DNA of 52,238 nt, taken from assembly GCA_003552125.1 (NCBI GenBank), contig PUON01000009.1:1-52238 (forward strand), in the 5' to 3' direction. This DNA is from Dehalococcoidia bacterium (GTDB taxonomy: Bacteria; Chloroflexota; Dehalococcoidia; GIF9; AB-539-J10). A program made the translations under genes and the position numbers. Below, piece after piece: positions 20,991 to 46,695 of the stretch; positions within the stretch are counted from its first letter, which is position 1, and the number at the start of each line of letters is the position of its first letter. Below the pieces are notes generated by a model. It did not search any database. It was not told the origin of the DNA and saw only the letters and a program-made list of their open reading frames with translations.

Positions 20991-21019
20991 TTGACATTAG
21001 TGAAGGAGGGCATTAGAAT
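20991..21019 (+). promoter_or_regulatory. Near-consensus sigma70 promoter of the CetZ-like gene
   Basis: TTGACA-N17-TAGAAT, ending 6 nt before the ATG at 21026. Confidence 0.75.
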
Positions 21020-21025
21020 AGCGAC

Positions 21026-22198
21026 ATGAAGCTGCTGGTTATCGGACTGGGACAATGCGGCGGACGTATCGCTGATAGGTTCGCCCGTCTGAATAAGAGA
21101 GGTCATGCACTTCGCGGGATGGATACGCTCGCCGGAGTGTTCGCGGTCAATACCGATGTTACGGACTTGAGTGGTTTGCGGACCATTAAGCCGGACTACA
21201 AGCATAGAATATTGATCGGCGCGCAGCGAACGAATGGACACGGAGTCGGCAAGATCAGCGAGCTCGGTGCTGAGATCGCGAACGAGGATGTCGACAAGAT
21301 CATCGATGCGATTCGTACGGCGTCAGGCTTCTACGAGACTGACGCGTTCCTGTTGTGCGCTGGCGCTGCCGGGGGCACTGGCTCAGGTGCCATCGCCGTG
21401 CTTACCAAGCATTTGAAGGAGCGGTACATAGGCAAGCCTGTCTACAATGTGGTGGTATTGCCGTTCCGGCAGGAGGAGAATACCGAAACCAGGACCATCT
21501 ACAACACCGCTACGTGTCTGAAGTCAACGTACCTGGTGGCGGACGCGGTCTTCCTGATCGACAATCAACGGTATGTGAAGAAGGATGCGCCAGCTGAGAA
21601 CAACCTGAACTCCATCAACGCCCGGGTGGTAGAGCCATTCTATAACGTACTGTGTGCGGGCGAGGAAACCAACAGGCGCTACGTCGGTTCCAAGACGCTT
21701 GATGCGGGTGACATCATTCAGACGCTTACGGGTTGGACGGTCATCGGTGGTGGCAGTGCGAAGCTTGATCGGCGTTTCTCATTGTTTGGCGCCAAGCGGG
21801 ACTTCCGCGAGAAGATGACCGATACCAGTCGGAGCACCCATGCTATGGACCAGGCCATCAGCGAGCTGTCAATGACGATTGATCCCAGTGATGTGGGTCG
21901 GGCGCTCTATCTGCTCACTGCTCCTTCAAAGGAGATGAGCATGGATGTGATGAAGCAATTGGGTGATAATCTGAGAAATCTCGCGCCGAACGCATTAATA
22001 CGAAGTGGCGACTACCCGCGCGATAGCAAGCAGATTGACGTCAGCGTGGTGATGTCCGAGATTCAGAACGTGCGTAAGATCACAGAGTACTTCACGAAAG
22101 CCATCGACCTCATATCGGTGATGAAAGCGAAGAAGGGTCTTGGGTATCAGACGAGACGGCTTGAAGAGTCATTCGACGATATCCCGGTACTGCTCTAG
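21026..22198 (+). CDS. Tubulin/FtsZ-superfamily GTPase, archaeal CetZ-like
   Basis: IGLGQCGGRI, AVNT...DL.GL, RILIG...GHGVG...ELGAEIA.ED, DAFL..AGAAGGTGSG, KHLKERY..PVY, IDN and TLDAGDIIQTL. These resemble CetZ proteins more than bacterial FtsZ. Confidence 0.88.
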   Translation: MKLLVIGLGQCGGRIADRFARLNKRGHALRGMDTLAGVFAVNTDVTDLSGLRTIKPDYKHRILIGAQRTNGHGVGKISELGAEIANEDVDKIIDAIRTASGFYETDAFLLCAGAAGGTGSGAIAVLTKHLKERYIGKPVYNVVVLPFRQEENTETRTIYNTATCLKSTYLVADAVFLIDNQRYVKKDAPAENNLNSINARVVEPFYNVLCAGEETNRRYVGSKTLDAGDIIQTLTGWTVIGGGSAKLDRRFSLFGAKRDFREKMTDTSRSTHAMDQAISELSMTIDPSDVGRALYLLTAPSKEMSMDVMKQLGDNLRNLAPNALIRSGDYPRDSKQIDVSVVMSEIQNVRKITEYFTKAIDLISVMKAKKGLGYQTRRLEESFDDIPVLL

Positions 22199-22232
22199 CG
22201 AAACGCACACAACGATCGTATACGGGTAACAG

Positions 22233-22264
22233 AAAGGCCCTCCGGCAACAGCCGGAGGGCCTTT
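22233..22264. terminator. Bidirectional intrinsic terminator
   Basis: AAAGGCCCTCCGGC-AACA-GCCGGAGGGCCTTT between convergent genes. Confidence 0.85.
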
Positions 22265-22307
22265 GCTTGTCATGAGCTATTCTCGATCACTCAGATGGCT
22301 CCTAATC

Positions 22308-22835
22308 CTAGCGGCGAGCCTTGGCGAACACGTTCCACGTCCGTTCCATCGCCTCGGCGCGTTCCTGCCGAGCCTTGGTCTCTACCTCATCACGTTTCTT
22401 CATCGCGTCAGTAACGACATCCTCATACTGTTTCTTGGATTGCGCCACCATATCTTCGTACGACTTTCGAGCCTGCGCGGAATTCTCTTCAAACGCATGC
22501 CTGGCCTTCGCAAGGCTGTCCTCCATTGTCTTCGTGGCCTGCGTAAGAGAGGCATCATGCGACTTCTTAGCGCTGCCAATAGCGTCAAGACTCTCCTTAC
22601 GGGCCTGTTCCAGTGCAGCGGCATAGTTCTTCTCCGCCTTCGCCTCCTGCTCCTTGTAGGCTCGCTCAAGTTGGCGTTGCGCCTCGATGTAGGCGACATA
22701 CGCCGCTGCCGCTCTTTGCTGAGTTTCGTCGAGCAGGTCTATAGTGGGCTCCGCAGCCTTTGCAGGCTTCTGCTCCTCCTCTACCGGCGTTTCGGGGGCT
22801 GCACTCTTCTGTTTGGTTTCCTCTTCGTTTGGCAT
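22308..22835 (-). CDS. Hypothetical helical protein with eleven tandem 11-residue repeats
   Basis: AYIEAQRQLER/AYKEQEAKAEK/NYAAALEQARK/.../SYEDMVAQSKK/QYEDVVTDAMK; AAGGAG RBS. Confidence 0.85.
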   Translation of the reverse strand: MPNEEETKQKSAAPETPVEEEQKPAKAAEPTIDLLDETQQRAAAAYVAYIEAQRQLERAYKEQEAKAEKNYAAALEQARKESLDAIGSAKKSHDASLTQATKTMEDSLAKARHAFEENSAQARKSYEDMVAQSKKQYEDVVTDAMKKRDEVETKARQERAEAMERTWNVFAKARR

Positions 22836-22919
22836 CCGTGTTCTCCTTCCGCTTCAAATCCTGACGTTGCTTGCACTGCCTATGGATAGGATGGTCTGTT
22901 CTCTCCAGAGATCTCTCCG

Positions 22920-24503
22920 TTATTCTTCTTTGTCTAGTTCATCCGGCTTGCTGAAAGGCTGCTCTTTGTCGGTTGCGTACATCTTAGCGAGGAATTGCAG
23001 TCTTGAATGAATGTCGGGACGGCTGTCACGCGGCTGCGGCTTGGAGGGCTTCGATTCTTCTGTGTCGAGGCGACTCATCGCCTCGATAAGCTGCTTTCTT
23101 GGAGGTTCAGGTTCATCCTCTCCGTGGGTTCGACGGGTCTGCTCTGCGCTGGCAGCAGTATCTTCGAACAATTTCACAGTTGCCCTTGCTACTTTGCGGG
23201 CTGCCTTTGTCGTCTCCTCGGCTTTGTCGATAGCTTCCTCCAGGATTCTGGATGACGACATCACGTTGTCACGCGCTGCCTTCACTGAGGCCTCGGTGGC
23301 TTCCCGGACAACTCGTTTGGATTCTTCAGCTGCATGTAGCGCTTCCGCGCTTGTCTCCTCGGCGCGCCTGGTGGCATCCGCGGCGAGTCGTCTCGCTTCC
23401 TCTGCTGCCTCTGCCGAGAGCCTTCCAAGCTCTTCAGCTCGATCGGACGCCTGTCCTGCCACCTTCAAGGCTTCATCCGCCAGCCTCGTTGCGGCTGCCG
23501 TCACCTCCTCGGTTCGTCTCACTGCCTCGCGTGCAGCGCGCTCAGCTTCCTCAGCGCGGCCCATTGCCTCCTGCGAGGCTCGTGTGGCGGATTCAACTGC
23601 CTCCCTGCTGGCACGTACCGATGCTTCGATTCTCGTCACTGCCTCCTGCGAGGCCTTGATCTGGCGCTCGGCTTCTCGCTGACTCAATTTGCCCGCTTCT
23701 TCGGCACGGCGGATCGCTGCCTCGAATGCGTGGCTCGACTGCTCAGTTGACGTGTTTGCAGCTGCAACTGCTTCTTCGGCGCGAGTTCTTGCTTCCTCGA
23801 ACGCCGATGATGAGAGAGCCGCGGAGTCGCTTGCGGCCTTGAAGACCTTTTCTGCCCTGGTGATAGCTCTTTCGGATGCCTTTTCGGCATCCTTGGAGGC
23901 CTTCTCCGACATCTTCGCGACGCGTTCGGCAGTGCTCTGAGCCTCGCGTGATACGCGAACTGATTCCTCAGACGCCTTGGCGGCCTGCCGCTCCTGTTCC
24001 TCGGCTGCAGCCATAGCTTCGTGCGCGGCACGGCGTGCTTCATCCGCTCGCTGTTGCGTCGAAACGGACATCTTCTCAACGCCGCTGAGAGTATTCTGAG
24101 ATGAGGCAAGAGTCTCTTGAACCGATGCAATGGCCTCATTCACAAGCCGCTCAAGGCGTTTCACGGCCTCGTCAAATGCGCGCGCACTTGATTCTGCGAC
24201 ATCGGTAGATGAGGCGAACACGCTTTCCGCCGTAGTAATTGCCTGATGCGCGCGTTCGATGGCCTCCCGGGATGCCCTGGAAGCCGCCTCACTGATGGAC
24301 TCGGCCTTCTTCGCAGCCTCCTCGGCATTACGACTCGCCTCTTCAGCCTCCTTGTGCGCTTCTCTCCCGATCTTCTCAACCCGGGAGTACGCTTGCTCGG
24401 ATGCCTTGCGCGACTGGTCGGCGGCCTGACGCGCGGCAAGATTCATCTGTTCGGCCCGCGCGACGGCCTCTTCAAAAGACGGATAGTCTTGTTCCATAGT
24501 CAT
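22920..24503 (-). CDS. Long Ala/Glu/Arg/Ser-rich coiled-coil protein with 25-residue repeats
   Basis: 527 aa with a proline-free rod of ~450 aa and a recurring xxEEAxxRAE unit every 25 residues. Start may be 24497. Confidence 0.88.
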   Translation of the reverse strand: MTMEQDYPSFEEAVARAEQMNLAARQAADQSRKASEQAYSRVEKIGREAHKEAEEASRNAEEAAKKAESISEAASRASREAIERAHQAITTAESVFASSTDVAESSARAFDEAVKRLERLVNEAIASVQETLASSQNTLSGVEKMSVSTQQRADEARRAAHEAMAAAEEQERQAAKASEESVRVSREAQSTAERVAKMSEKASKDAEKASERAITRAEKVFKAASDSAALSSSAFEEARTRAEEAVAAANTSTEQSSHAFEAAIRRAEEAGKLSQREAERQIKASQEAVTRIEASVRASREAVESATRASQEAMGRAEEAERAAREAVRRTEEVTAAATRLADEALKVAGQASDRAEELGRLSAEAAEEARRLAADATRRAEETSAEALHAAEESKRVVREATEASVKAARDNVMSSSRILEEAIDKAEETTKAARKVARATVKLFEDTAASAEQTRRTHGEDEPEPPRKQLIEAMSRLDTEESKPSKPQPRDSRPDIHSRLQFLAKMYATDKEQPFSKPDELDKEE

Positions 24504-24583
24504 CCTTCGACGTTGGGCTATGCAGCGCCCGATTGCCGTTAGGCACCCAACTCTCCAAATTGTAGTGACCGTTTCACTCTATT

Positions 24584-25411
24584 TCAACGAATCAGCGGGA
24601 GCTTTCGATTATGCAAAGCCGGCAAATGCTGCCGTATCTTCGCCATTTCCCCGAAATCAAGCGTTGCCGATATAACCTCTTCCCCGTCGCCGGAAGCCCG
24701 TGCCAGCACCCGCCCCCACGGATCGATAATAATGCTGTTTCCGTATGTGGGTATTTCACCCGCACCTATGCCGGCCTGGCCGGGAGCCACGATAAAGCAC
24801 TGGTTCTCGATGGCTCGGGCGCGAAGCAGAACCTCCCAGTGCGCCTCGCCTGTTGGAGCCGTGAAGGATGAAGGCACAAACACGAGATCGGCTCCCGCAT
24901 CTGCAAGAGCCCTGTAGAGCTCAGGGAATCTCATGTCATAGCATATCGTCAGTCCTGCCGTGAGCCCGTCCACGCATGCGGCAACAATGTCCTTCCCTGC
25001 CTGGAATTTCGCAGATTCGGTGACTGACCTGTCTCCTATGGCGATGTCGAACAGGTGAATCTTCCGGTAGCGGGCAACTAACTTGCCGTCCGGGCTGATG
25101 AGCGTGGACGTGTTGTAGGGCATCCCGCCGTCAGGATCGGCTTCATGAACACTGCCAGCCAGTATCCACACACCTCGATCAGCGGCAAGAGACATCAGTG
25201 AAACCAATGCGCTGCCGGGTAGGGGCTGTGCGATCCTGCTGAGGTCGGTTTCGCTTCCCCGGTAGTCAAATGTCTCGGGTAGTGCGATCAGCCTGGCTCC
25301 GGTATCTACAGCCTGGGTGGCCAGGGTCAGTGCCCGTTCGATATTGACGGTTTGGTTCGGCCCGCTTGCGGTCTGTGCTATTGCAACTGTAATTGGGCTG
25401 GAGTGTGTCAT
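24584..25411 (-). CDS. Carbon-nitrogen hydrolase (Nit1/deaminated glutathione amidase-like)
   Basis: LPE, YRKIHLFD and TICYDMRFPE (E-K-C triad); HWEVLLRARAIENQ. Confidence 0.93.
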   Translation of the reverse strand: MTHSSPITVAIAQTASGPNQTVNIERALTLATQAVDTGARLIALPETFDYRGSETDLSRIAQPLPGSALVSLMSLAADRGVWILAGSVHEADPDGGMPYNTSTLISPDGKLVARYRKIHLFDIAIGDRSVTESAKFQAGKDIVAACVDGLTAGLTICYDMRFPELYRALADAGADLVFVPSSFTAPTGEAHWEVLLRARAIENQCFIVAPGQAGIGAGEIPTYGNSIIIDPWGRVLARASGDGEEVISATLDFGEMAKIRQHLPALHNRKLPLIR

Positions 25412-39808: not shown

Positions 39809-42298
39809 TCAGGAACACTTGGTGTACCCGCAGGTGATACAGATGCTGCATCCCTCCTGGTGGATAAGTCCTCCGCTGCATTCAGGGCACTGGCTCACGG
39901 GACCAACGTGTTGCATCTCGTGAGTTGAGTCCTCTTCATCGGCAACGTATTTTTCAAGCACTCCTGCTATGGCATCGGCGCACGACATAACAGACTTGCC
40001 CTGCTCCCATGCTATGGAGGGGCATCGAATACCCCGCAGGTTCCTGGCGATGGATCCGAGGTCAAGGCCGCACCTCAGGGCGTTGGAGATTAATCGACTT
40101 GTTGCCTCAAGCTGCGCAGCTGCACAGCCGCCGGCCTTGCCCAGTGTGGCGAATGCTTCACACACTCCCTTATCGTCGAAGTTGATGGTCACATACATGT
40201 TGCCGCAGCCGGTGGGCACCCGCTCGGTGACGCCACGCGTCACTTTCGGTCGAGTGCGGGGTACCAGTGATGGCTTCTCCTCAGGTTTCGTCTTTCCTCC
40301 GGTGCTGAGGACCTGGTCGGTGCGGCTGCCGTCACGGTAGATGGTTATACCCTTCAGCTTCTGTTCAAAGGCCTGCAGATAGACATTTGCCACGTCCTCT
40401 CTCGTCGCACTGCTCGGGAAGTTCACTGTCTTTGAGACCGCGCTGTCCGTGTGTCTTTGGAACGCGGCCTGCATTCTTACGTGCCACTCCGGCGAGATGT
40501 CATATGCGCAGACGAACGTCTGCTTGACGTCATCCGGGATGTCCTCAATTTCGCTGAGAGGCGAACCCTGTGCCAGCGAACGCATCAATTGCTCCGAATA
40601 GAATCCGCGTGCGCGTGCTTCTTCCTCGAAATAGGGGTTGACCTCGAGGAAGTCCTCTCTGTCGAGAATCCTCCTCACATACGTGAGGGCAAATATGGGC
40701 TCGATGCCGCTCGAGCAGTTCGCGAGGATGCTCAGACTGCCTGTCGGCGCAATCGTGGTGCGTGAGGCGTTCCGGTAGGCAGTTCTGCCGTTTGTGTCAT
40801 AGATACTTCCCTCAAATGAAGGAAACGCGCCACGCTTTAGAGCCAGCTCCAGTGATGCTCTGTCGGCTTCGTCTGATATGAACTCCATGACGGCTTCAGC
40901 GGTGCTGATGGCCTCTTCGCTGTTGTAGGGTATGCGCATTTGCAGGAGCATGTCGGCGAAACCCATGACGCCCAGTCCGATCTTCCTGGTTGCCAGCGTC
41001 CTGTCGCGTATCTCCGGAAGGGGGAACTCGTTGACCTCGATTACATCATCCAGAAACCGTACCGCCAGCTGGACGATGTGTCCCAGCCGTTCGTAGTCGA
41101 TGGCGGCTGGTGTGGCGGAACTGTCCACCATGCGGGCAAGGTTGATGGATCCGAGGTTGCATGACTCATAGGGGAGCAGCGGCTGTTCACCGCATGGATT
41201 GGTACTCTCGATCCGTCCCAGTTGCGGAGTGGGGTTGTGCCGGTTGATCTCGTCGAGGAACACAATGCCCGGATCTCCGGTCATCCATGCCATGTCGACT
41301 ATCTGGTCGAACACATCCTTGGCACGTGCGTGATCGACGACCTCGCCGGTTCTTGGGTTCAGCAGACTGTAGTCCGTATCGCCCCGCACCGCCTGCATGA
41401 ATTCATCTGTAACGCCGACCGACAGGTTGAAGTTCGTCAAGACGCCCGGCTCATTCTTGGCGGAGATGAATCTCCTTATGTCGGGATGAGTGACGCTGAG
41501 GATGGCCATGTTGGCACCCCTCCTCATGCCTCCCTGCTTGATGACGTCGGTCGTTTTGTCAAATACCTGCATGAAGGAGAGGGGTCCGCTCGCCACCCCC
41601 CCGGTGCTTCCCACGCGATCCTGCTGTGGACGCAAGCGCGAGAACGAGAAGCCGGTCCCTCCTCCACTCTTATGGATGAGAGCCGTGTGCTTCACCGCGT
41701 CGAATATGGACTCCATAGAGTCCTCGACCGGGATTACAAAGCATGCGGACAGCTGTCCCAGTTCCCTGCCGGCATTCATCAGAGTAGGGGAATTGGGGAG
41801 AAACTCGAGTCGGGCCATCGATTGGTAGAACTGTTCGGCCCATGATTCGGCGTCTGCCGAGGAGTCGAAGATAACCTCTGCGTGAGCCACGGCACGGGCG
41901 ACACGCCGGAGCAGATCTTCCGGAGTCTCCGCGGGCGTTCCGTCGTTACTCTTGGCGAGGTACCTGCGCTCAAGGACAGTCATCGCGTTTCGTGTGAAGG
42001 TAAGGCCCGGAACTGCCGCCGCCGTTGCCTCTGCCGGTACAACGCGCAGTGGTTTTGCCGGCTTGGACTCAACTGGTGTGGCGGGCGAATGCCGCAGCCT
42101 TTGTTCCCGTGCAGGGACCAGTTCCTCCATGCCTGGCAGTGGACGGGCGACACCCAGTCTCTCGCTCACCTTCTCGGTAAGTTGCTCCAGCAGTTTGCGG
42201 TCGGTCATACCGATTGTCTCTGCAGCTGAGAAGACTGCCTGTGCCACGCTGTCGGTTGTGACGTGGGTCCTCTCTTTGCGTGTATTGCGACGTGCCAT
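39809..42298 (-). CDS. nrdJ: Vitamin B12-dependent (class II) ribonucleotide reductase with C-terminal TSCPD/Zn-ribbon region
   Basis: PNSPTLMNAG, QLSACF, GGGTG, TNPCGEQPL, CNLGSIN, TIAPTG, VSKTVN, TIYRDGSR and C-terminal CPEC...CITCGYTKC. Confidence 0.96.
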   Translation of the reverse strand: MARRNTRKERTHVTTDSVAQAVFSAAETIGMTDRKLLEQLTEKVSERLGVARPLPGMEELVPAREQRLRHSPATPVESKPAKPLRVVPAEATAAAVPGLTFTRNAMTVLERRYLAKSNDGTPAETPEDLLRRVARAVAHAEVIFDSSADAESWAEQFYQSMARLEFLPNSPTLMNAGRELGQLSACFVIPVEDSMESIFDAVKHTALIHKSGGGTGFSFSRLRPQQDRVGSTGGVASGPLSFMQVFDKTTDVIKQGGMRRGANMAILSVTHPDIRRFISAKNEPGVLTNFNLSVGVTDEFMQAVRGDTDYSLLNPRTGEVVDHARAKDVFDQIVDMAWMTGDPGIVFLDEINRHNPTPQLGRIESTNPCGEQPLLPYESCNLGSINLARMVDSSATPAAIDYERLGHIVQLAVRFLDDVIEVNEFPLPEIRDRTLATRKIGLGVMGFADMLLQMRIPYNSEEAISTAEAVMEFISDEADRASLELALKRGAFPSFEGSIYDTNGRTAYRNASRTTIAPTGSLSILANCSSGIEPIFALTYVRRILDREDFLEVNPYFEEEARARGFYSEQLMRSLAQGSPLSEIEDIPDDVKQTFVCAYDISPEWHVRMQAAFQRHTDSAVSKTVNFPSSATREDVANVYLQAFEQKLKGITIYRDGSRTDQVLSTGGKTKPEEKPSLVPRTRPKVTRGVTERVPTGCGNMYVTINFDDKGVCEAFATLGKAGGCAAAQLEATSRLISNALRCGLDLGSIARNLRGIRCPSIAWEQGKSVMSCADAIAGVLEKYVADEEDSTHEMQHVGPVSQCPECSGGLIHQEGCSICITCGYTKCS

Positions 42299-42313
42299 AT
42301 GGATCTACCTCGA

Positions 42314-42808
42314 TTACTGCGGGATGTCCTTCAACTCGCTGCGCCGCTGCTTTGTGGTAGTCAATCCAGCTGAGAGACTTTCGAGCGCGTCTCGGAGAGC
42401 ACCGATGTCGGTGAAATCTCTGTAGACGCTTGCAAACCTGATGTAGGCGATATGATCAAGTCTCTCAAGTCCTTCCATCACCAGATCGCCCACAATGGTA
42501 CTGGCAATCTCAGCCTTGCCGAGTTCGTGGACCTGTTCCTCGATAGTGGTGATGAGCTTCTCGATCGATCCAATCGGTAGGGGACGTTTCTCGCATGCCT
42601 TGCGGATTCCGGCTGCCAGTTTCTCCCGGTCGTATGCTTCCCGCCTCCCATCCTTCTTCACGATGAACAGGGCGTAATTCTGTACGCGCTCTGACGTGGT
42701 GAAGCGGGCTTCGCACTCTGAGCAGACCCGCCTTCTTCGCACCTCTTCTTCGAGGCCACGAGAATCGATTACACGGGACTCAAGTGCGCCGCAGAATGGA
42801 CATTTCAC
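42314..42808 (-). CDS. nrdR: Transcriptional repressor NrdR
   Basis: MKCPFC...SRVIDSR...RRRRVC..C..RFTT.E, ATP cone and AYIRFASVYR. Confidence 0.98.
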   Translation of the reverse strand: MKCPFCGALESRVIDSRGLEEEVRRRRVCSECEARFTTSERVQNYALFIVKKDGRREAYDREKLAAGIRKACEKRPLPIGSIEKLITTIEEQVHELGKAEIASTIVGDLVMEGLERLDHIAYIRFASVYRDFTDIGALRDALESLSAGLTTTKQRRSELKDIPQ

Positions 42809-42817
42809 ACGACATCA

Positions 42818-42864
42818 TCCCCACTTCTTGTGGTGCAATACCATTCTAGCACCATATATAGTAT
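42818..42864. promoter_or_regulatory. Tandem NrdR boxes overlapping the nrdR promoter
   Basis: tccCcActTcTtGtgg (42818-42833) and gcaCcAtATaTaGtat (42849-42864), 31 bp apart, match acaCwAtATaTwGtgt. A minus-strand TAGAAT -10 hexamer lies between them (42843-42848). Confidence 0.8.
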
Positions 42865-42898
42865 GTCACAACTGCTGTATGCGTGGGTTCAATTGAAG

Positions 42899-42930
42899 AA
42901 CGGGGGGATGGCGTACGCCATCCCCCCGTT
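42899..42930 (-). terminator. Intrinsic terminator after ftsZ
   Basis: Perfect 32-bp inverted repeat AACGGGGGGATGGCGTACGCCATCCCCCCGTT, 10 nt after the ftsZ stop. Confidence 0.8.
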
Positions 42931-42940
42931 ACTTCGAGTT

Positions 42941-44071
42941 CTACTGCCAGGAGAGTCGATTGGCCTGAGGCGCCACCTCGGAGTGGCCGCGGAGAGCGTG
43001 ACTGAGCTGCCCTCCGGAGTGCTTCTGGCTGCGTCGCAGGAACGACGGTACGTCGAGAGAGTCGCCGCCGCCCTTCATCAGCCGCCTGAGCTCCTCGGTA
43101 TCCGGCGAGCCCTTCCCATACTGGCTTGTAAATCCGGTTGCAATAACAGTGATCTTCACCTCGCTGTCGAGCTTAGGATCGAAGACCACGCCAAAGATGA
43201 TATTGGCCCGTGGATCCACCGCTTCGCTGATGACGCTTGCAGCCTCATTGCACTCGAAGAGAGTGAGGCTCGGTCCCCCGGTGATGTTGAAGAGCACACC
43301 CTTGGCGCCGGTTACCTGTGCGTCCAGCAACGGGCTGGCGAGCGCAGCCTTGGCGGCGTCGACAGCGCGATTCTGTCCGGTGCCCCTGCCTACTGACATC
43401 CATGCGGGGCCGGCATCCTTCATGACCGACTTGATGTCCGCGAAGTCAAGGTTGATGAGCCCGGGCACGGTGACGACCTCCGAGATTGCCTGGACGCCAA
43501 GCAGGAGCGCGTCGTCAGCAAGCCGGAAGGCCGCGTCCACCGTCGTTTTGTTATCACAGAGCTGCAGAAGCCTGTCGTTCGGGATGATTATGAGCGTGTC
43601 CACCTTCTCTGTCAGGTGCAGAATTCCCTCTTCGGCAACCTCTGATCGGTGGCCCCCCTCGAACTTGAAGGGCTTGGTGACGACGCCGATGGTGAGCGCG
43701 CCCGATTCCTTGGCGGTCTGTGCTACCACGGGTATTCCGCCGGTGCCGGTGCCTCCGCCCATTCCAGCGGAGACGAAGACCATGTCAGCGCCCTCCACTA
43801 CTTCCTGGATCGTCTGTCTGCTTTCCTCGGCTGCCTTGTGGCCGGTGCGGTGATCTCCTCCGGCACCGAGGCCGCGCGTGAGTTTCTCGCCCAGCTGTAT
43901 CCTGGTCTGGGCTTCCGCCAGCGCGAGGGCCTGTGCATCCGTGTTCATTGCGACGAACTCGACGCCACGGATGCCCTCCCTGATCATGCGATTGATCGCG
44001 TTGGTGCCACCGCCCCCAATGCCGATCGCCTTGATCCTGGCCGGGGCTGGTGTGTAAGTTGTCTTAGCCAT
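42941..44071 (-). CDS. ftsZ: Cell division protein FtsZ (canonical)
   Basis: GGGGTNA, MNTDAQAL, TRGLGAG, GMGGGTGTG, INLDFAD and C-terminal peptide LDVPSFLRR. Confidence 0.99.
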   Translation of the reverse strand: MAKTTYTPAPARIKAIGIGGGGTNAINRMIREGIRGVEFVAMNTDAQALALAEAQTRIQLGEKLTRGLGAGGDHRTGHKAAEESRQTIQEVVEGADMVFVSAGMGGGTGTGGIPVVAQTAKESGALTIGVVTKPFKFEGGHRSEVAEEGILHLTEKVDTLIIIPNDRLLQLCDNKTTVDAAFRLADDALLLGVQAISEVVTVPGLINLDFADIKSVMKDAGPAWMSVGRGTGQNRAVDAAKAALASPLLDAQVTGAKGVLFNITGGPSLTLFECNEAASVISEAVDPRANIIFGVVFDPKLDSEVKITVIATGFTSQYGKGSPDTEELRRLMKGGGDSLDVPSFLRRSQKHSGGQLSHALRGHSEVAPQANRLSWQ

Positions 44072-44110
44072 TCTTGCCTCCTCGTTCTCGCAACTTGTTT
44101 TCTGTGAATC

Positions 44111-45331
44111 CTAACCCCGGAAGAGCTTCCGCAGCAGTTTGCCGATGCCTCCAAACATGCCACCTCGCGTAGCCTGCCACGCGGAAGGTTCGCGGCTTCG
44201 TGCCTGCCAGAGCACGAGTCCCAGAGTGGTCGCATAGGCTGAATCCCGAAGAATATCGGTAATTCCGTACACGCCGCTACCGAGCGGAGCACCCCTCCGT
44301 AGTGGCATCTTGAGTTGATCTCTGCCCAGCTCGACCATTCCATTGAGGTTCGCGGTCCCGCCGGTGAGTACGAGGCCGCACGGGGCCAGTCGCTGATAGT
44401 CGGTTGTGGGAAGCTCAAGGAGAATGAGCTCGAACATCTCCTCGAGTCTTGAGCGGACGATCTCGCACAGCTCGCGGTACGATGCCGTATGCCCGTTCTC
44501 AATCCCGGTGAGCTCATGCTCCTTGCCGGCATCGAGGCCGGGGGTCACGTTGCCGTAGGTCTTCTTCATGCGCTCCGCCACGTGGAACGGGAGACCGAGC
44601 CCGATAGCGATGTCGCTTGTTATCTGGTAGCCGGCCACGGGGATGATCGCGGTGTGATAGATGTCGCCATCCTTGAACACGGCGATGTCAGTCGTGCCGC
44701 CGCCGAGATCTGCCATGATGATTCCGCTCTCGCGCTCCTGCGGAGTCAGTACCGCTTCGCCGCTTGCCAGTGGTTCGAGTACGAGATCGTGTACCTGCAC
44801 GCCGATGCTCCTGATAACCTTCACCAGGTTTTGCACGGAGGATACCGATGCGGTGATGATATGCGTCTCGACGTCAAGACGGGTGCCATGCATGCCGACG
44901 GGCTGCTTGACGCGTTCTTCTCCGTCGAGTGTGTAGTACCTGGGGATGGCGTGCAGCAGCTTCTTTCCCTCCGGCACAGCCACGTTCCTCGATGCAGCCA
45001 GAACTCTGTGCAGGTCGTCAGCGCGTACGAGACGGTCGGCTCTGGGGATAGCCACCACTCCCTTGTTGTTGATACTGCTGATATGCCGGCCGGTGACGCC
45101 GACGAGCACAGAGTCGACCCTCATGCCGCTGATCTTCTGTGCCTCCTGGATCGAGGCGGAGATTGCCTCTTTTGCCTCGTCCATATTGACTACGATCCCC
45201 TTGTGCATGCCATGGCTAGGCACGACGCCCACACCGAGGACTTCGATGTCGTCCTGGCTGCGAACGTTCGCCACGATGGTGGCTATCTTCGTGGTGCCTA
45301 TGTCAATTGCGGATACAATCCCTTTGGCCAT
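44111..45331 (-). CDS. ftsA: Cell division protein FtsA
   Basis: AIDIGTTKI, DLGGGTTD, AERMK..YG and VLTGGTA; C-terminal amphipathic helix. Confidence 0.97.
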   Translation of the reverse strand: MAKGIVSAIDIGTTKIATIVANVRSQDDIEVLGVGVVPSHGMHKGIVVNMDEAKEAISASIQEAQKISGMRVDSVLVGVTGRHISSINNKGVVAIPRADRLVRADDLHRVLAASRNVAVPEGKKLLHAIPRYYTLDGEERVKQPVGMHGTRLDVETHIITASVSSVQNLVKVIRSIGVQVHDLVLEPLASGEAVLTPQERESGIIMADLGGGTTDIAVFKDGDIYHTAIIPVAGYQITSDIAIGLGLPFHVAERMKKTYGNVTPGLDAGKEHELTGIENGHTASYRELCEIVRSRLEEMFELILLELPTTDYQRLAPCGLVLTGGTANLNGMVELGRDQLKMPLRRGAPLGSGVYGITDILRDSAYATTLGLVLWQARSREPSAWQATRGGMFGGIGKLLRKLFRG

Positions 45332-45376
45332 TCTTACCTCCTTAGATTGCGCCAGACGCTGAGGCGCAGGCCATGC

Positions 45377-46258
45377 CTACGCAAGACGCTCAGCGACCCT
45401 GAGCCGCGCACTGCGGCTGCGGGGATTGGAGCTACACTCCAATGCGGTAGGTCGTATGACCTTTCGTGTTGTGAGCAGAAAGGCATGTTCGGCTGCCTGC
45501 GCCCGCATGAACTGCTTCACGATGCGATCTTCCAGGGAGTGATAGCTGATCACCACCAGCCTTCCTCCTGCTTTGAGGAGGCTCACCGCCTGGTCCAGTG
45601 CCAGCTTCAGATTGTCGAGCTCCCTGTTGACCGCGATCCGAAGAGCCATGAATGTGCGGGTGGCGGGATGAATCCTGCCACGCCTGCTGCCCAGGACCTG
45701 CTGCACTATGTGCGCAAGTCGTAATGTGGACAGGATCGGCCTCTGTTGCACGATCCTGTGCGCGATTTGGCGGGAGTAACGTTCTTCTCCGAACTCCCAC
45801 AAGATGCGAGCCAACTCCTGCTCGCTGTAGCTGTTTACGATTTCCGCTGCACTCGGCCCTGTGCTGCTGTCGAATCGCATATCGAGCGGGGCCTCCCTCT
45901 GGAAGCTGAATCCCCGCTCGGCGGTGTCCAACTGCATGGAAGATATTCCAAGATCGAACAGCATCCCGTCCGTCTGTTCGAAACCCTGATCCCGGCAGAT
46001 ACGGCCAAGTTCTCCAAAATTGCCTTGTGCGAGCACCACAGATTCGCAGTATGCGGCGAGCGACTGGCGGGCGTTTTCAATTGCTTCGGGATCCGCATCT
46101 ATTGCGAGCAACCGGCCGTTGGGTTGTATCCTCTCCAGCAAAGCCCGAGCATGTCCACCTGCACCAAGCGTGCAGTCAACGTACCAGCCTCCAGGATGAG
46201 CGTTCAGTGCCTCCATAGCCTCAGTCACCATTACCGGGACGTGTGCTGTCGATGGCAT
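45377..46258 (-). CDS. rsmH: 16S rRNA m4C1402 methyltransferase
   Basis: HVPVM, DCTLGAGGH, DLGISSMQLD..ERGFSF, HPATRTF.ALRI.VN and NPRSRSARLR. Confidence 0.97.
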   Translation of the reverse strand: MPSTAHVPVMVTEAMEALNAHPGGWYVDCTLGAGGHARALLERIQPNGRLLAIDADPEAIENARQSLAAYCESVVLAQGNFGELGRICRDQGFEQTDGMLFDLGISSMQLDTAERGFSFQREAPLDMRFDSSTGPSAAEIVNSYSEQELARILWEFGEERYSRQIAHRIVQQRPILSTLRLAHIVQQVLGSRRGRIHPATRTFMALRIAVNRELDNLKLALDQAVSLLKAGGRLVVISYHSLEDRIVKQFMRAQAAEHAFLLTTRKVIRPTALECSSNPRSRSARLRVAERLA

Positions 46259-46269
46259 TGAGTCTTTGC

Positions 46270-46695
46270 TCAACCGCCTCCCATGCTTTCCAGGATTTGT
46301 TCGGCCTGTTCCTCGGATGATGCCTTTTCCGACTTCCACAGATCCTCGTTCCAGAGCTCGATTGACTGGTTGACGCCCACGACCACGACCGACTCTCCGA
46401 TCTCTGCGTGGAGACGGAGAGGATGCGGAATGGCCATACGCCCCTGCTTGTCGAATGTGGCCGAGTAGGCAGCCCCGAATATTGCTCTATTCAGCTTCCG
46501 CTGGCTTGCAGACGTCACCGCTTTCGATGCCAGCTCGTCCGCGAGCCTCTTCCACTCACCCACAGGATAGGCCCGGACACATTTCTCGGATCCCTTCGTG
46601 AGCACGACGGAGTCGCGCAGATCCCTGCGAAACTTGGGGGGTATCGGAACTCTTCCCTTATCGTCTAACTTGTAGACATACTCGCCAAAAAACAT
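46270..46695 (-). CDS. mraZ: Division/cell wall cluster transcriptional repressor MraZ
   Basis: MFFGEY...LDDKGRV.IP..FR and FDKQGRM.IP (two DxxGR motifs). Confidence 0.97.
   Translation of the reverse strand: MFFGEYVYKLDDKGRVPIPPKFRRDLRDSVVLTKGSEKCVRAYPVGEWKRLADELASKAVTSASQRKLNRAIFGAAYSATFDKQGRMAIPHPLRLHAEIGESVVVVGVNQSIELWNEDLWKSEKASSEEQAEQILESMGGG

Follow-up and report, generated by a model that had tools for sequence, protein, structure and literature searches.

A CetZ-like tubulin gene and two coiled-coil repeat genes conserved as a trio in Dehalococcoidia: a candidate internal skeleton

Introduction

What holds the form of a bacterium that has neither peptidoglycan nor MreB? The question, for which the discs of Dehalococcoides are an example, has so far found no explanation, and it is raised again by a locus in the genome of a Dehalococcoidia bacterium (assembly GCA_003552125.1). 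The stretch of DNA that was analysed as a whole, 52,238 nucleotides of contig PUON01000009.1, is called the window below, and the three genes of the locus are called T, for a tubulin-family GTPase, S, for a short helical protein, and L, for a long coiled-coil protein. A preliminary description, made from the letters of the window, had proposed that T is CetZ-like and very different from the canonical FtsZ encoded in the same window, that it converges on two tandem genes built of 25- and 11-residue helical repeats, and that a bacterium with little or no peptidoglycan may use such a tubulin together with filament proteins as a shape or membrane skeleton. To our knowledge, the CetZ shape system has been studied so far in archaea only. 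In the present study the conservation of the three genes, the architecture of their products and the cell wall gene content of their hosts were analysed computationally; most of the genomes examined were metagenome-assembled genomes (MAGs), and genomes, contigs, loci and families are designated by our own handles (G, C, L and f with a number).

Results

Conservation of the gene trio

The convergence of T, on the plus strand, upon the tandem genes S and L, on the minus strand, was as previously described (Table 1); L lies upstream of S, 84 bp away from it. A lack of conservation of this adjacency in related genomes, or repeat proteins without the GTPase, had been named beforehand as what would refute the link, and the link survived this test. 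A profile of S scanned over one genome per species, for 185,579 species, gave 45 loci, all of them in MAGs titled Dehalococcoidia, Dehalococcoidales, Chloroflexota, Chloroflexi, Chloroflexia or, once, "bacterium". T stood convergently beside S in 45 of the 45 loci, so that S was found only next to the GTPase and never independently of it, and L preceded S in 43, with S starting less than 250 bp from the contig start in the other two.

The same picture was obtained with a panel of 61 genomes of the same order, in which a T-like gene was present in 60, S in 31 and L in 33. Among the relatives, 29 had a T orthologue with 60% identity or more; S adjoined T in the same convergent order in every one of these, and L adjoined S in 28, the contig of the remaining one (G018) ending at this point; in G016 the last 120 residues of L were all that the contig held. 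The single S match of the panel located away from a T orthologue was weak (G025, E = 7.1e-4).

As a control for general synteny, 15-kb stretches of 13 loci were compared. Within the genus the whole neighbourhood was syntenic (tgt, nnr, T, S, L, a carbon-nitrogen hydrolase gene and secDF), and outside it, in 12 loci representing 11 genera, the flanks, which were compared by clustering among themselves, differed. Only T, S and L were gene families present in all 13 loci; the next real family was present in 4, and a further apparent family in 11 loci consisted of shadow reading frames opposite L. The distance between the T and S stop codons was 22–121 bp in the 12 other loci. As judged from the assembled sequences, this comparison shows joint inheritance of the three genes with their convergent order preserved.

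In one locus of the same genus (L044, G003:C4, 116076–118262), S was matched as two overlapping pieces, residues 1–118 and 116–175, and L likewise as residues 2–488 and 486–526, which suggests frameshifts or sequencing errors in that assembly.

Table 1 Positions of the features discussed in the text (numbered as in the window unless another contig is named)
Feature	Position	Strand	Remarks
T, CetZ-like tubulin-family GTPase	21026–22198	+	390 amino acids (aa); open reading frame (ORF), Pfam Tubulin and CetZ_C
Conserved C-terminal tail of T	22154–22195	+	last 14 residues, ends DIPVLL
Convergent gap, T stop to S stop	22199–22307		109 bp; ORF coordinates
S, hendecad helix protein	22308–22835	-	175 aa; ORF
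L, acidic coiled-coil protein	22920–24503	-	527 aa; ORF
C-terminal motif of L, RLQFLAKMY	22977–23003	-	residues 501–509, between proline-rich linker and acidic tail
Rod of L	23130–24476	-	residues 10–458; 18 in-phase 25-residue repeats, single register
Promoter-like site before T	20991–21019	+	TTGACA, 17 nt, TAGAAT; 11/12 consensus matches
Promoter-like site upstream of L	24559–24587	-	TTGAAA, 17 nt, TACAAT; 10/12 consensus matches
ftsZ	42941–44071	-	Pfam FtsZ_C
ftsA	44111–45331	-	Pfam FtsA, SHS2_FTSA
rsmH	45377–46339		division cluster in window
L-like/CetZ-like gene pairs			G104, G142, G246 (f42); G071 (f16); G190 (f56); G233 (f61)
Tail-anchored coiled coil, own genome	G000:C28:20496–22697	+	L123, L124; also L119, L120, L122

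The CetZ-like protein T

The product of T exceeded the cut-offs of two Pfam families, Tubulin (PF00091; E = 9.2e-34, 117.8 bits, cut-off 33) and CetZ_C (PF21011; E = 7.4e-16, 58.5 bits, cut-off 21.6, residues 193–360), and the CetZ-like label given earlier was therefore right by domain content. Among 14 named control genomes, CetZ_C was found in that of Haloferax volcanii only. The separation from FtsZ was equally borne out: T scored 65.3 bits against the cut-off of 295.2 for the NCBIfam ftsZ equivalog and thus failed it, it gave no match to the Pfam FtsZ_C domain, which the ftsZ product of the window has, and the two proteins of the window shared 33% identity over residues 29–156 (E = 2.3e-4). 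T is classed here as CetZ-like and not as a canonical CetZ, in line with the listing of the Dehalococcoidia sequences among "other CetZ-like proteins" in PMC9871819.

The best solved relatives of T in the PDB were chains 4b46 (E = 3.7e-42 over residues 1–361), 4b45 (2.8e-24) and 3zid (3.6e-14), of which the first two, which we take to be H. volcanii CetZ1 and CetZ2, are both named "cell division protein FtsZ" in their PDB files. All three are presumably the CetZ structures of Duggin et al. (2015), under the PDB names FtsZ or tubulin/FtsZ GTPase. Weaker matches were obtained with FtsZ (best E = 1.4e-12), gamma-tubulin (8.5e-10) and the TubZ-type chains 2xka and 3m8k (2e-5). The GGTGSG box of T (G116, G119, S120) and D229 were invariant in 32 of 32 aligned CetZ-like proteins, and D229 was aligned to E218 of chain 4b46, presumably the catalytic T7-loop residue of CetZ1 that is needed for GTP hydrolysis. 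The alignments show a full tubulin/CetZ domain set in T, with the predicted nucleotide-binding and T7-loop acidic residues intact.

The C-terminal tail of T was kept in 13 of 13 orthologues, and relatives of T paired with coiled-coil genes in other families end in IPSLL or IPLLL. The tail also resembles the C-terminal peptide of FtsZ of the same genome, which holds DVPSFL. Three tubulin-family genes were found in this genome, namely those for FtsZ, T and a second CetZ-like protein, T2, which is encoded on contig C129 and is 51% identical to T.

The rod protein L

The 25- and 11-residue repeats of the preliminary description proved to be real, the former belonging to L and the latter to S. L is rich in Ala (22%), Glu (16%), Ser (11%) and Arg (11%), with a net charge of -20, and its self-similarity peaked at lags of 25 (z = 13.9) and 50 residues (z = 10.9), with a hydrophobic period of 3.57, that is, 25/7. 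Each of its repeats has seven hydrophobic sites, with Glu at position 8 in 15 of 18 repeats and Ala at position 3 likewise in 15 of 18, and the approximately 450 helical residues of the rod would correspond to a length of about 65 nm. The rod is followed, in the structure model, by a proline-rich segment predicted to be disordered (459–497), a short helix (498–513) and an acidic end; the model served for helix and disorder boundaries only.

The residues invariant across the 17 L orthologues cluster in this short C-terminal helix, where R501, L502, L505 and Y509 of the end motif were the same in 17 of 17. Orthologue lengths ranged from 505 to 761 aa, with a varying number of repeats. No family of Pfam or NCBIfam matched L above its cut-off, and a search for homologues of residues 440–527 among proteins of 289–923 residues gave 52 word-sharing candidates, none of them at E ≤ 0.01. 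An assignment of the end motif as a membrane-targeting amphipathic helix was considered and found unsupported, given its hydrophobic moment of 0.29 and the acidic tail that follows it.

The hendecad protein S

For S, the AlphaFold2 model (mean predicted local distance difference test, pLDDT, 84.6) consisted of a disordered head (residues 1–30) and a single continuous helix (31–174), about 20 nm long. The self-similarity of residues 40–175 peaked at lag 11 (z = 8.3), and the hydrophobic period was 3.66, corresponding to 11/3. Both ends were conserved among the orthologues, and the middle differed in repeat number. With S, no family of Pfam or NCBIfam exceeded its cut-off: the top match, DivIVA_Wag31, failed with 16.4 bits against 260, and the phasin family PhaP_Bmeg remained sub-threshold (E = 0.058). 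In a protein atlas, S fell into Chloroflexota clusters with scores of 0.93–0.94, at a recognition of 1480, short of the level that counts, as would fit a lineage-restricted family.

An origin of S as a piece split from L was also considered and was rejected, as the S hidden Markov model matched only the S-like protein of locus L107 (E = 7.2e-33) and nothing significant in seven L-like proteins of other families.

Pairing of T and L beyond the family

The search was extended to 20 stretches around CetZ_C matches, taken from 14 genomes of other families of the class. In six of the 14 genomes, representing four families (Table 1), a long Ala/Glu/Lys-rich protein of 441–900 aa was encoded convergently to one CetZ-like paralogue, the latter being 54–59% identical to T, and in G039 (f4) an L-like gene likewise faced a CetZ-like gene. 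The pairing thus recurred in five further families (f4, f16, f42, f56 and f61), while the flanking genes changed. In G233 an S-like gene (S-profile E = 7.2e-33) lay between the CetZ-like and L-like genes; S was found only in families f1 and f61, and it is an accessory part of the arrangement.

All seven L-like proteins showed strong 25-residue self-similarity (lag 25 ranked first in five, second or third in two) and a proline- or acid-rich linker, and the end motif, in the form R-[LM]-x-x-L-x-[KQ]-M-[YFH], was present at the 7 loci of the five further families. An acidic tail followed in six of the seven, the protein of G039 ending in a basic stretch. Identity to L dropped to 23–34% with the gene arrangement unchanged.

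A tubulin tree was then calculated from 51 rows, none of them dropped: 22 coiled-coil-adjacent proteins, 28 that were not adjacent, and the FtsZ of the same genome as outgroup; the set held no archaeal sequences, and the labels were assigned by hand from gene context (composition and similarity to L). The 22 coiled-coil-adjacent tubulins formed one clade (ultrafast bootstrap 96, Shimodaira–Hasegawa-like approximate likelihood ratio test 100), with which a quick tree agreed, and the adjacency trait needed a single change in 200 of 200 bootstrap trees. These results show that the T–L module is shared by six or more families of Dehalococcoidia that lack peptidoglycan (f1, f4, f16, f42, f56 and f61).

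One row labelled as not adjacent (L107, 8033) is the sister of this clade; its gene is 1.1 kb away from the 5' end of an L-like gene, which hints at a local duplication. In family f4, the loci L117 (G039:C8) and L118 (G043:C78) contain L-like genes of 925–964 aa, with an L-like N-terminus and the end motif, that stop about 170 bp before the contig end. In the same two genomes, T-like genes 48–51% identical to T (G039:C15:173–1324 and G043:C92:160–1308) begin some 170 bp into a contig and have the orientation that fits a convergent pair; a recurrent assembly break inside the module may be involved.

Cell wall and division genes

The statement that the division and cell wall (dcw) cluster of the window lacks peptidoglycan genes was confirmed, since rsmH, ftsA and ftsZ were its only genes of this kind and no mur, penicillin-binding protein (PBP) or SEDS (shape, elongation, division and sporulation) genes were found there. 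In the genome as a whole, which is 94% complete, no match was obtained to PF00905, PF01098 or PF00953 (PBP transpeptidase, FtsW/RodA and MraY-type transferase), and a single Mur_ligase_M match was weak (35.7 bits). No true MreB was found in the genome, the cross-matches being FtsA and a 636-residue frame. FtsA was the only membrane anchor of FtsZ detected in the genome, and SepF was not found.

The idea that such a tubulin goes with a loss of peptidoglycan fitted a survey of 201 genomes drawn evenly from the class, which are related to one another and whose handles were compared by hand. CetZ_C was present in 38 genomes from at least 14 families, the PBP transpeptidase in 88, neither in 75 and both together in none, so that CetZ_C occurred in 0 of 88 genomes with the transpeptidase against 38 of 113 without it. 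Across the 201 sampled genomes of this one class, the CetZ-like domain and PBPs were mutually exclusive.

The remnant of the division cluster extends over positions 39809–46339 of the window. Directly after rsmH, ftsA and ftsZ come nrdR and a gene for a ribonucleotide reductase with a TSCPD domain, and nothing resembling ftsQ was seen from rsmH to ftsA.

Transcription signals at the locus

Scanning for consensus promoter patterns gave 3 sites, compared with 1.4 expected in shuffled sequence. One was found before T and one upstream of L, and none directly before S, which fits one transcript for T and one two-gene transcript for L and S. The site before T ends 7 nt ahead of the ATG start codon, and the T mRNA, if this putative promoter is used, may be leaderless or nearly so. 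No terminator-like hairpin was found in the gap between T and S. Among seven entries that contain this stretch in whole or in part, none is recorded as RNA. Within the window, the locus sits among the housekeeping genes tgt, nnr and secDF, and the G+C content is even.

Discussion

A conserved unit of filament and rods

The results obtained suggest, at the level of sequence and gene order, that a CetZ-like tubulin and its L and S partners constitute an undescribed internal skeleton. Whether the three proteins in fact make up one conserved functional unit, in which a nucleotide-driven CetZ-like filament protein works with two dedicated coiled-coil partners, we regard as about evenly balanced. 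In such a unit, T would polymerise with GTP under the membrane, and its FtsZ-like tail would attach it to a membrane anchor, for which FtsA is the only candidate found. Coiled-coil oligomers formed by L and S, rods of about 65 and 20 nm, would bind T filaments and bundle, space or stabilise them, with the invariant C-terminal motif of L as a putative docking peptide, a role proposed for it because it is the most conserved part of the protein and is carried on a flexible linker. The assembly could then help to set cell form or envelope organisation in cells without MreB or a murein wall.

A number of observations weigh against this interpretation. Being convergent, T and the S–L pair cannot share a transcript, and their adjacency is indirect evidence. 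The monomer model of L had a mean pLDDT of 58, which is low confidence, and the helical hydrophobic moment of its C-terminal motif (0.29) is low and gives no clear hint of the binding target. Families f2, f3 and f5, which belong to the same order, keep CetZ-like genes from other clades, and L and S were not detected in them with the present queries, with the sole exception of a weak L match (E = 2.3e-4) in G060; CetZ-like proteins can therefore work without such partners. The T2-like gene of these families converges instead on a conserved pair of uncharacterised genes. Moreover, Ala/Glu-rich coiled coils of 514–975 aa with a C-terminal membrane helix are encoded in the same genome and in G003, G026 and G028, away from any CetZ-like gene, and the 25-residue type is for this reason not exclusive to the T locus. 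Their 25/50-residue period was clear in G026 and G028, and two G003 proteins peaked at lags 50 and 40. These tail-anchored proteins might belong to the same skeleton, or the rod type might be a general building block in these genomes. Finally, the exclusion between CetZ_C and PBPs is not statistical proof, since the genomes are kin and few evolutionary events may lie behind it. Complex predictions for T with S and for T with residues 400–527 of L gave scores of 0.07 and 0.16 against a mark of 0.32; they were run without controls and were counted neither way.

A bolder version of the skeleton, which we consider possible but rather doubtful, is that wall-less Dehalococcoidia, probably with cultured relatives among them to judge by complete single-contig genomes of 1.4–1.9 Mb in family f42, replaced the MreB/murein shape system with a cortical skeleton of archaeal-type tubulin, cross-braced by a ruler-like L. 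With 18 or more exact 25-residue repeats and lengths of 441–964 aa between lineages, L would dock by its C-terminal peptide, and its length would set the filament spacing or the thickness of the cell. Such a cytoskeleton, a tubulin with its partner at work in a bacterium without any cell wall, would be the first of its kind, and a case in which a filament and its accessory protein have evolved together over class-level divergence.

Alternative explanations

Among the alternatives, an unlikely but serious one is that the module is a cell-division accessory, in which T joins or regulates the FtsZ ring through FtsA, and L and S, acting like the coiled-coil Z-ring proteins of other bacteria, stabilise constriction without septal wall synthesis. 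The resemblance of the DIPVLL tail to the DVPSFL peptide of the genome's own FtsZ speaks for such an accessory, as does the presence of FtsA in a genome where SepF was not found, and in D. mccartyi the levels of FtsZ and of a tubulin-like protein are described, in the main text of PMC8163811, as falling together in cells with an abnormal ring-shaped septum. However, T is located outside the ftsA–ftsZ cluster, about 21 kb away in the window, and S and L resemble no Pfam or NCBIfam family above cut-off, the DivIVA_Wag31 match standing at 16 bits against 260.

The adjacency could also have been inherited without any direct interaction, with L and S serving as general structural or protective helical proteins of the membrane- or droplet-coating, stress or surface-layer-supporting kind. 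An 11-residue repeat is a usual trait of amphipathic helices that coat surfaces, and the faint likeness of S to the phasin PhaP_Bmeg, the convergent orientation of the genes and the membrane-anchored coiled coils of 25-residue period elsewhere in these genomes all fit this explanation. It is nevertheless quite improbable: the flanks were reshuffled between genera and the order and orientation of the trio were kept, the tubulins next to L make up a single clade that spans six families or more, and S was never found without T in 45 loci. L and T, moreover, both end in short invariant peptides after flexible linkers, which we read as the usual form of docking motifs.

Some plasmids and phages carry partition systems in which a tubulin-family protein works with helical modulator proteins. 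It is highly improbable, in spite of the distant TubZ-type matches of T, that the trio stems from a mobile element now resident in the chromosome and is its TubZ-like DNA-partition system, with the coiled coils modulating the filament, as the CetZ chains match T about 37 orders of magnitude better and T carries CetZ_C, S and L gave no match to a DNA-binding domain in Pfam or NCBIfam (the flanks of other loci were not searched for adaptor or centromere features), T, S and L are the only gene families kept at the locus, which lies among housekeeping genes of even G+C content, and inheritance was vertical across families.

Relation to known systems

Of the known systems, archaeal CetZ (H. volcanii CetZ1 and CetZ2), a family linked to the formation of rod shape and to motility, comes closest to T, with which it shares the Tubulin and CetZ_C architecture over a full-length alignment (E = 3.7e-42), the nucleotide-binding motifs and the T7 acidic residue, as well as cells without a murein wall. 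The host of T, in contrast, is bacterial, the identity is moderate, the tail is FtsZ-like and there are dedicated coiled-coil neighbours.

The parallel with crescentin, FilP and Scy drawn in the preliminary description did not hold at the level of sequence: L and S share with these proteins, and with DivIVA, the form of long alpha-helical rods with short end domains and a proposed role as sub-membrane scaffold, but no sequence kinship to them was detectable, the periods of L (25/7) and S (11/3) are not those of heptads, and the rods of the known proteins act together with wall synthesis, which is missing in this genome. Crescentin, FilP and Scy are heptad-based rods that self-assemble without nucleotide, Scy presumably with a repeat period of 51 residues. 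The earlier interpretation as a whole thus stands in part, supported by the conserved linkage, the T–L pairing in five further families and the single clade, and without this kinship. FtsZ, with FtsA, SepF or ZipA and with ZapA, ZapB or EzrA, offers another likeness, as it too combines a tubulin-family polymer, a short C-terminal recruiting peptide and helical bundling proteins; T, however, is not FtsZ, and L and S belong to none of these partner families. In a broad sense, the trio belongs with the tubulin-family cytoskeletons that have accessory helical proteins.

The CetZ-like proteins of Dehalococcoidia are already known from Santana-Molina et al. (2023; PMC9871819), whose main text reports that a CetZ C-terminal hidden Markov model matches sequences of Chloroflexota-Dehalococcoidia and lists these among "other CetZ-like proteins", not canonical CetZ; T most likely belongs to the same protein groups. 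The main text of that paper, figures and supplements aside, names no partner genes for the Dehalococcoidia groups, does not connect them with the loss of peptidoglycan and does not separate paired from unpaired paralogues. It does describe coiled-coil genes of uncharacterised function around the archaeal Halo.Tub, Asg.Tub and OdinTubulin genes, which are mutually unrelated and, for OdinTubulin, specific to one genome. The theme of the archaeal loci is thus the same, but the L genes are orthologues that form a conserved family, marked by a defined repeat and a defined end motif.

Proteomics of D. mccartyi BTF08 is reported, in the main text of PMC8163811, to have detected a second "FtsZ/Tubulin GTPase", which may belong to the T clade, together with a hypothetical protein encoded nearby, both more abundant in the disc-shaped cells of pure culture than in the barrel-shaped cells of co-culture. 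In the texts on CetZ and tubulin in Chloroflexota and Dehalococcoidia that were covered (PMC9871819, PMC11459167, PMC8163811 and PMC7203096, supplements and figures aside), no L or S partners were found, nor any report of paired and unpaired paralogues or of an exclusion between CetZ and PBPs. As far as these texts go, the CetZ-like T of Dehalococcoidia was known already (PMC9871819) and no report of the L and S partner families was found.

For the problem of form without peptidoglycan and MreB, the locus provides a three-protein module with defined handles, namely the tail of T, the end motif of L and the repeat number of L. A contrast between paralogues is also available, as paired and unpaired CetZ-like genes occur in the same genomes, and the CetZ field, so far without partners, gains a candidate class of accessory proteins.

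Other CetZ-like genes

Apart from the trio, several arrangements of CetZ-like genes were observed. The gene for T2 (391 aa; G000:C129, L003, 72–1247, minus strand) lies directly downstream of a gene at 1293–2741 on the same strand, whose large product has TIG and Ig-like domains and, at its C-terminus, a membrane helix. In L025 and L031 (f2), L104 and L101, too, a CetZ-like gene comes after the gene for a large secreted Ig-like/TIG protein and shares its strand, and this pairing is possibly a second, envelope-linked CetZ module.

In families f2–f4 (L024, L025, L026, L028, L029, L030 and L031), a T2-like gene is convergent with, or near, a conserved pair of uncharacterised genes coding for proteins of about 455 aa, with a weak sub-threshold Terminase_6C match (E = 0.0049), and about 110 aa, and several f2 and f3 genomes have two CetZ-like paralogues pointing towards each other on either side of this pair, at a distance of 5–6 kb.

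L104 (G068:C24, 2702–6336) contains a same-strand tandem of three CetZ-like genes. Two of the encoded proteins (358 and 371 aa, 32–34% identical to T) match CetZ_C at about 1e-30, far above T, and by this score the type is nearer to archaeal CetZ than T is. Similar high-scoring single CetZ-like genes were found in G024, G070, G086, G130, G156, G173 and G226.

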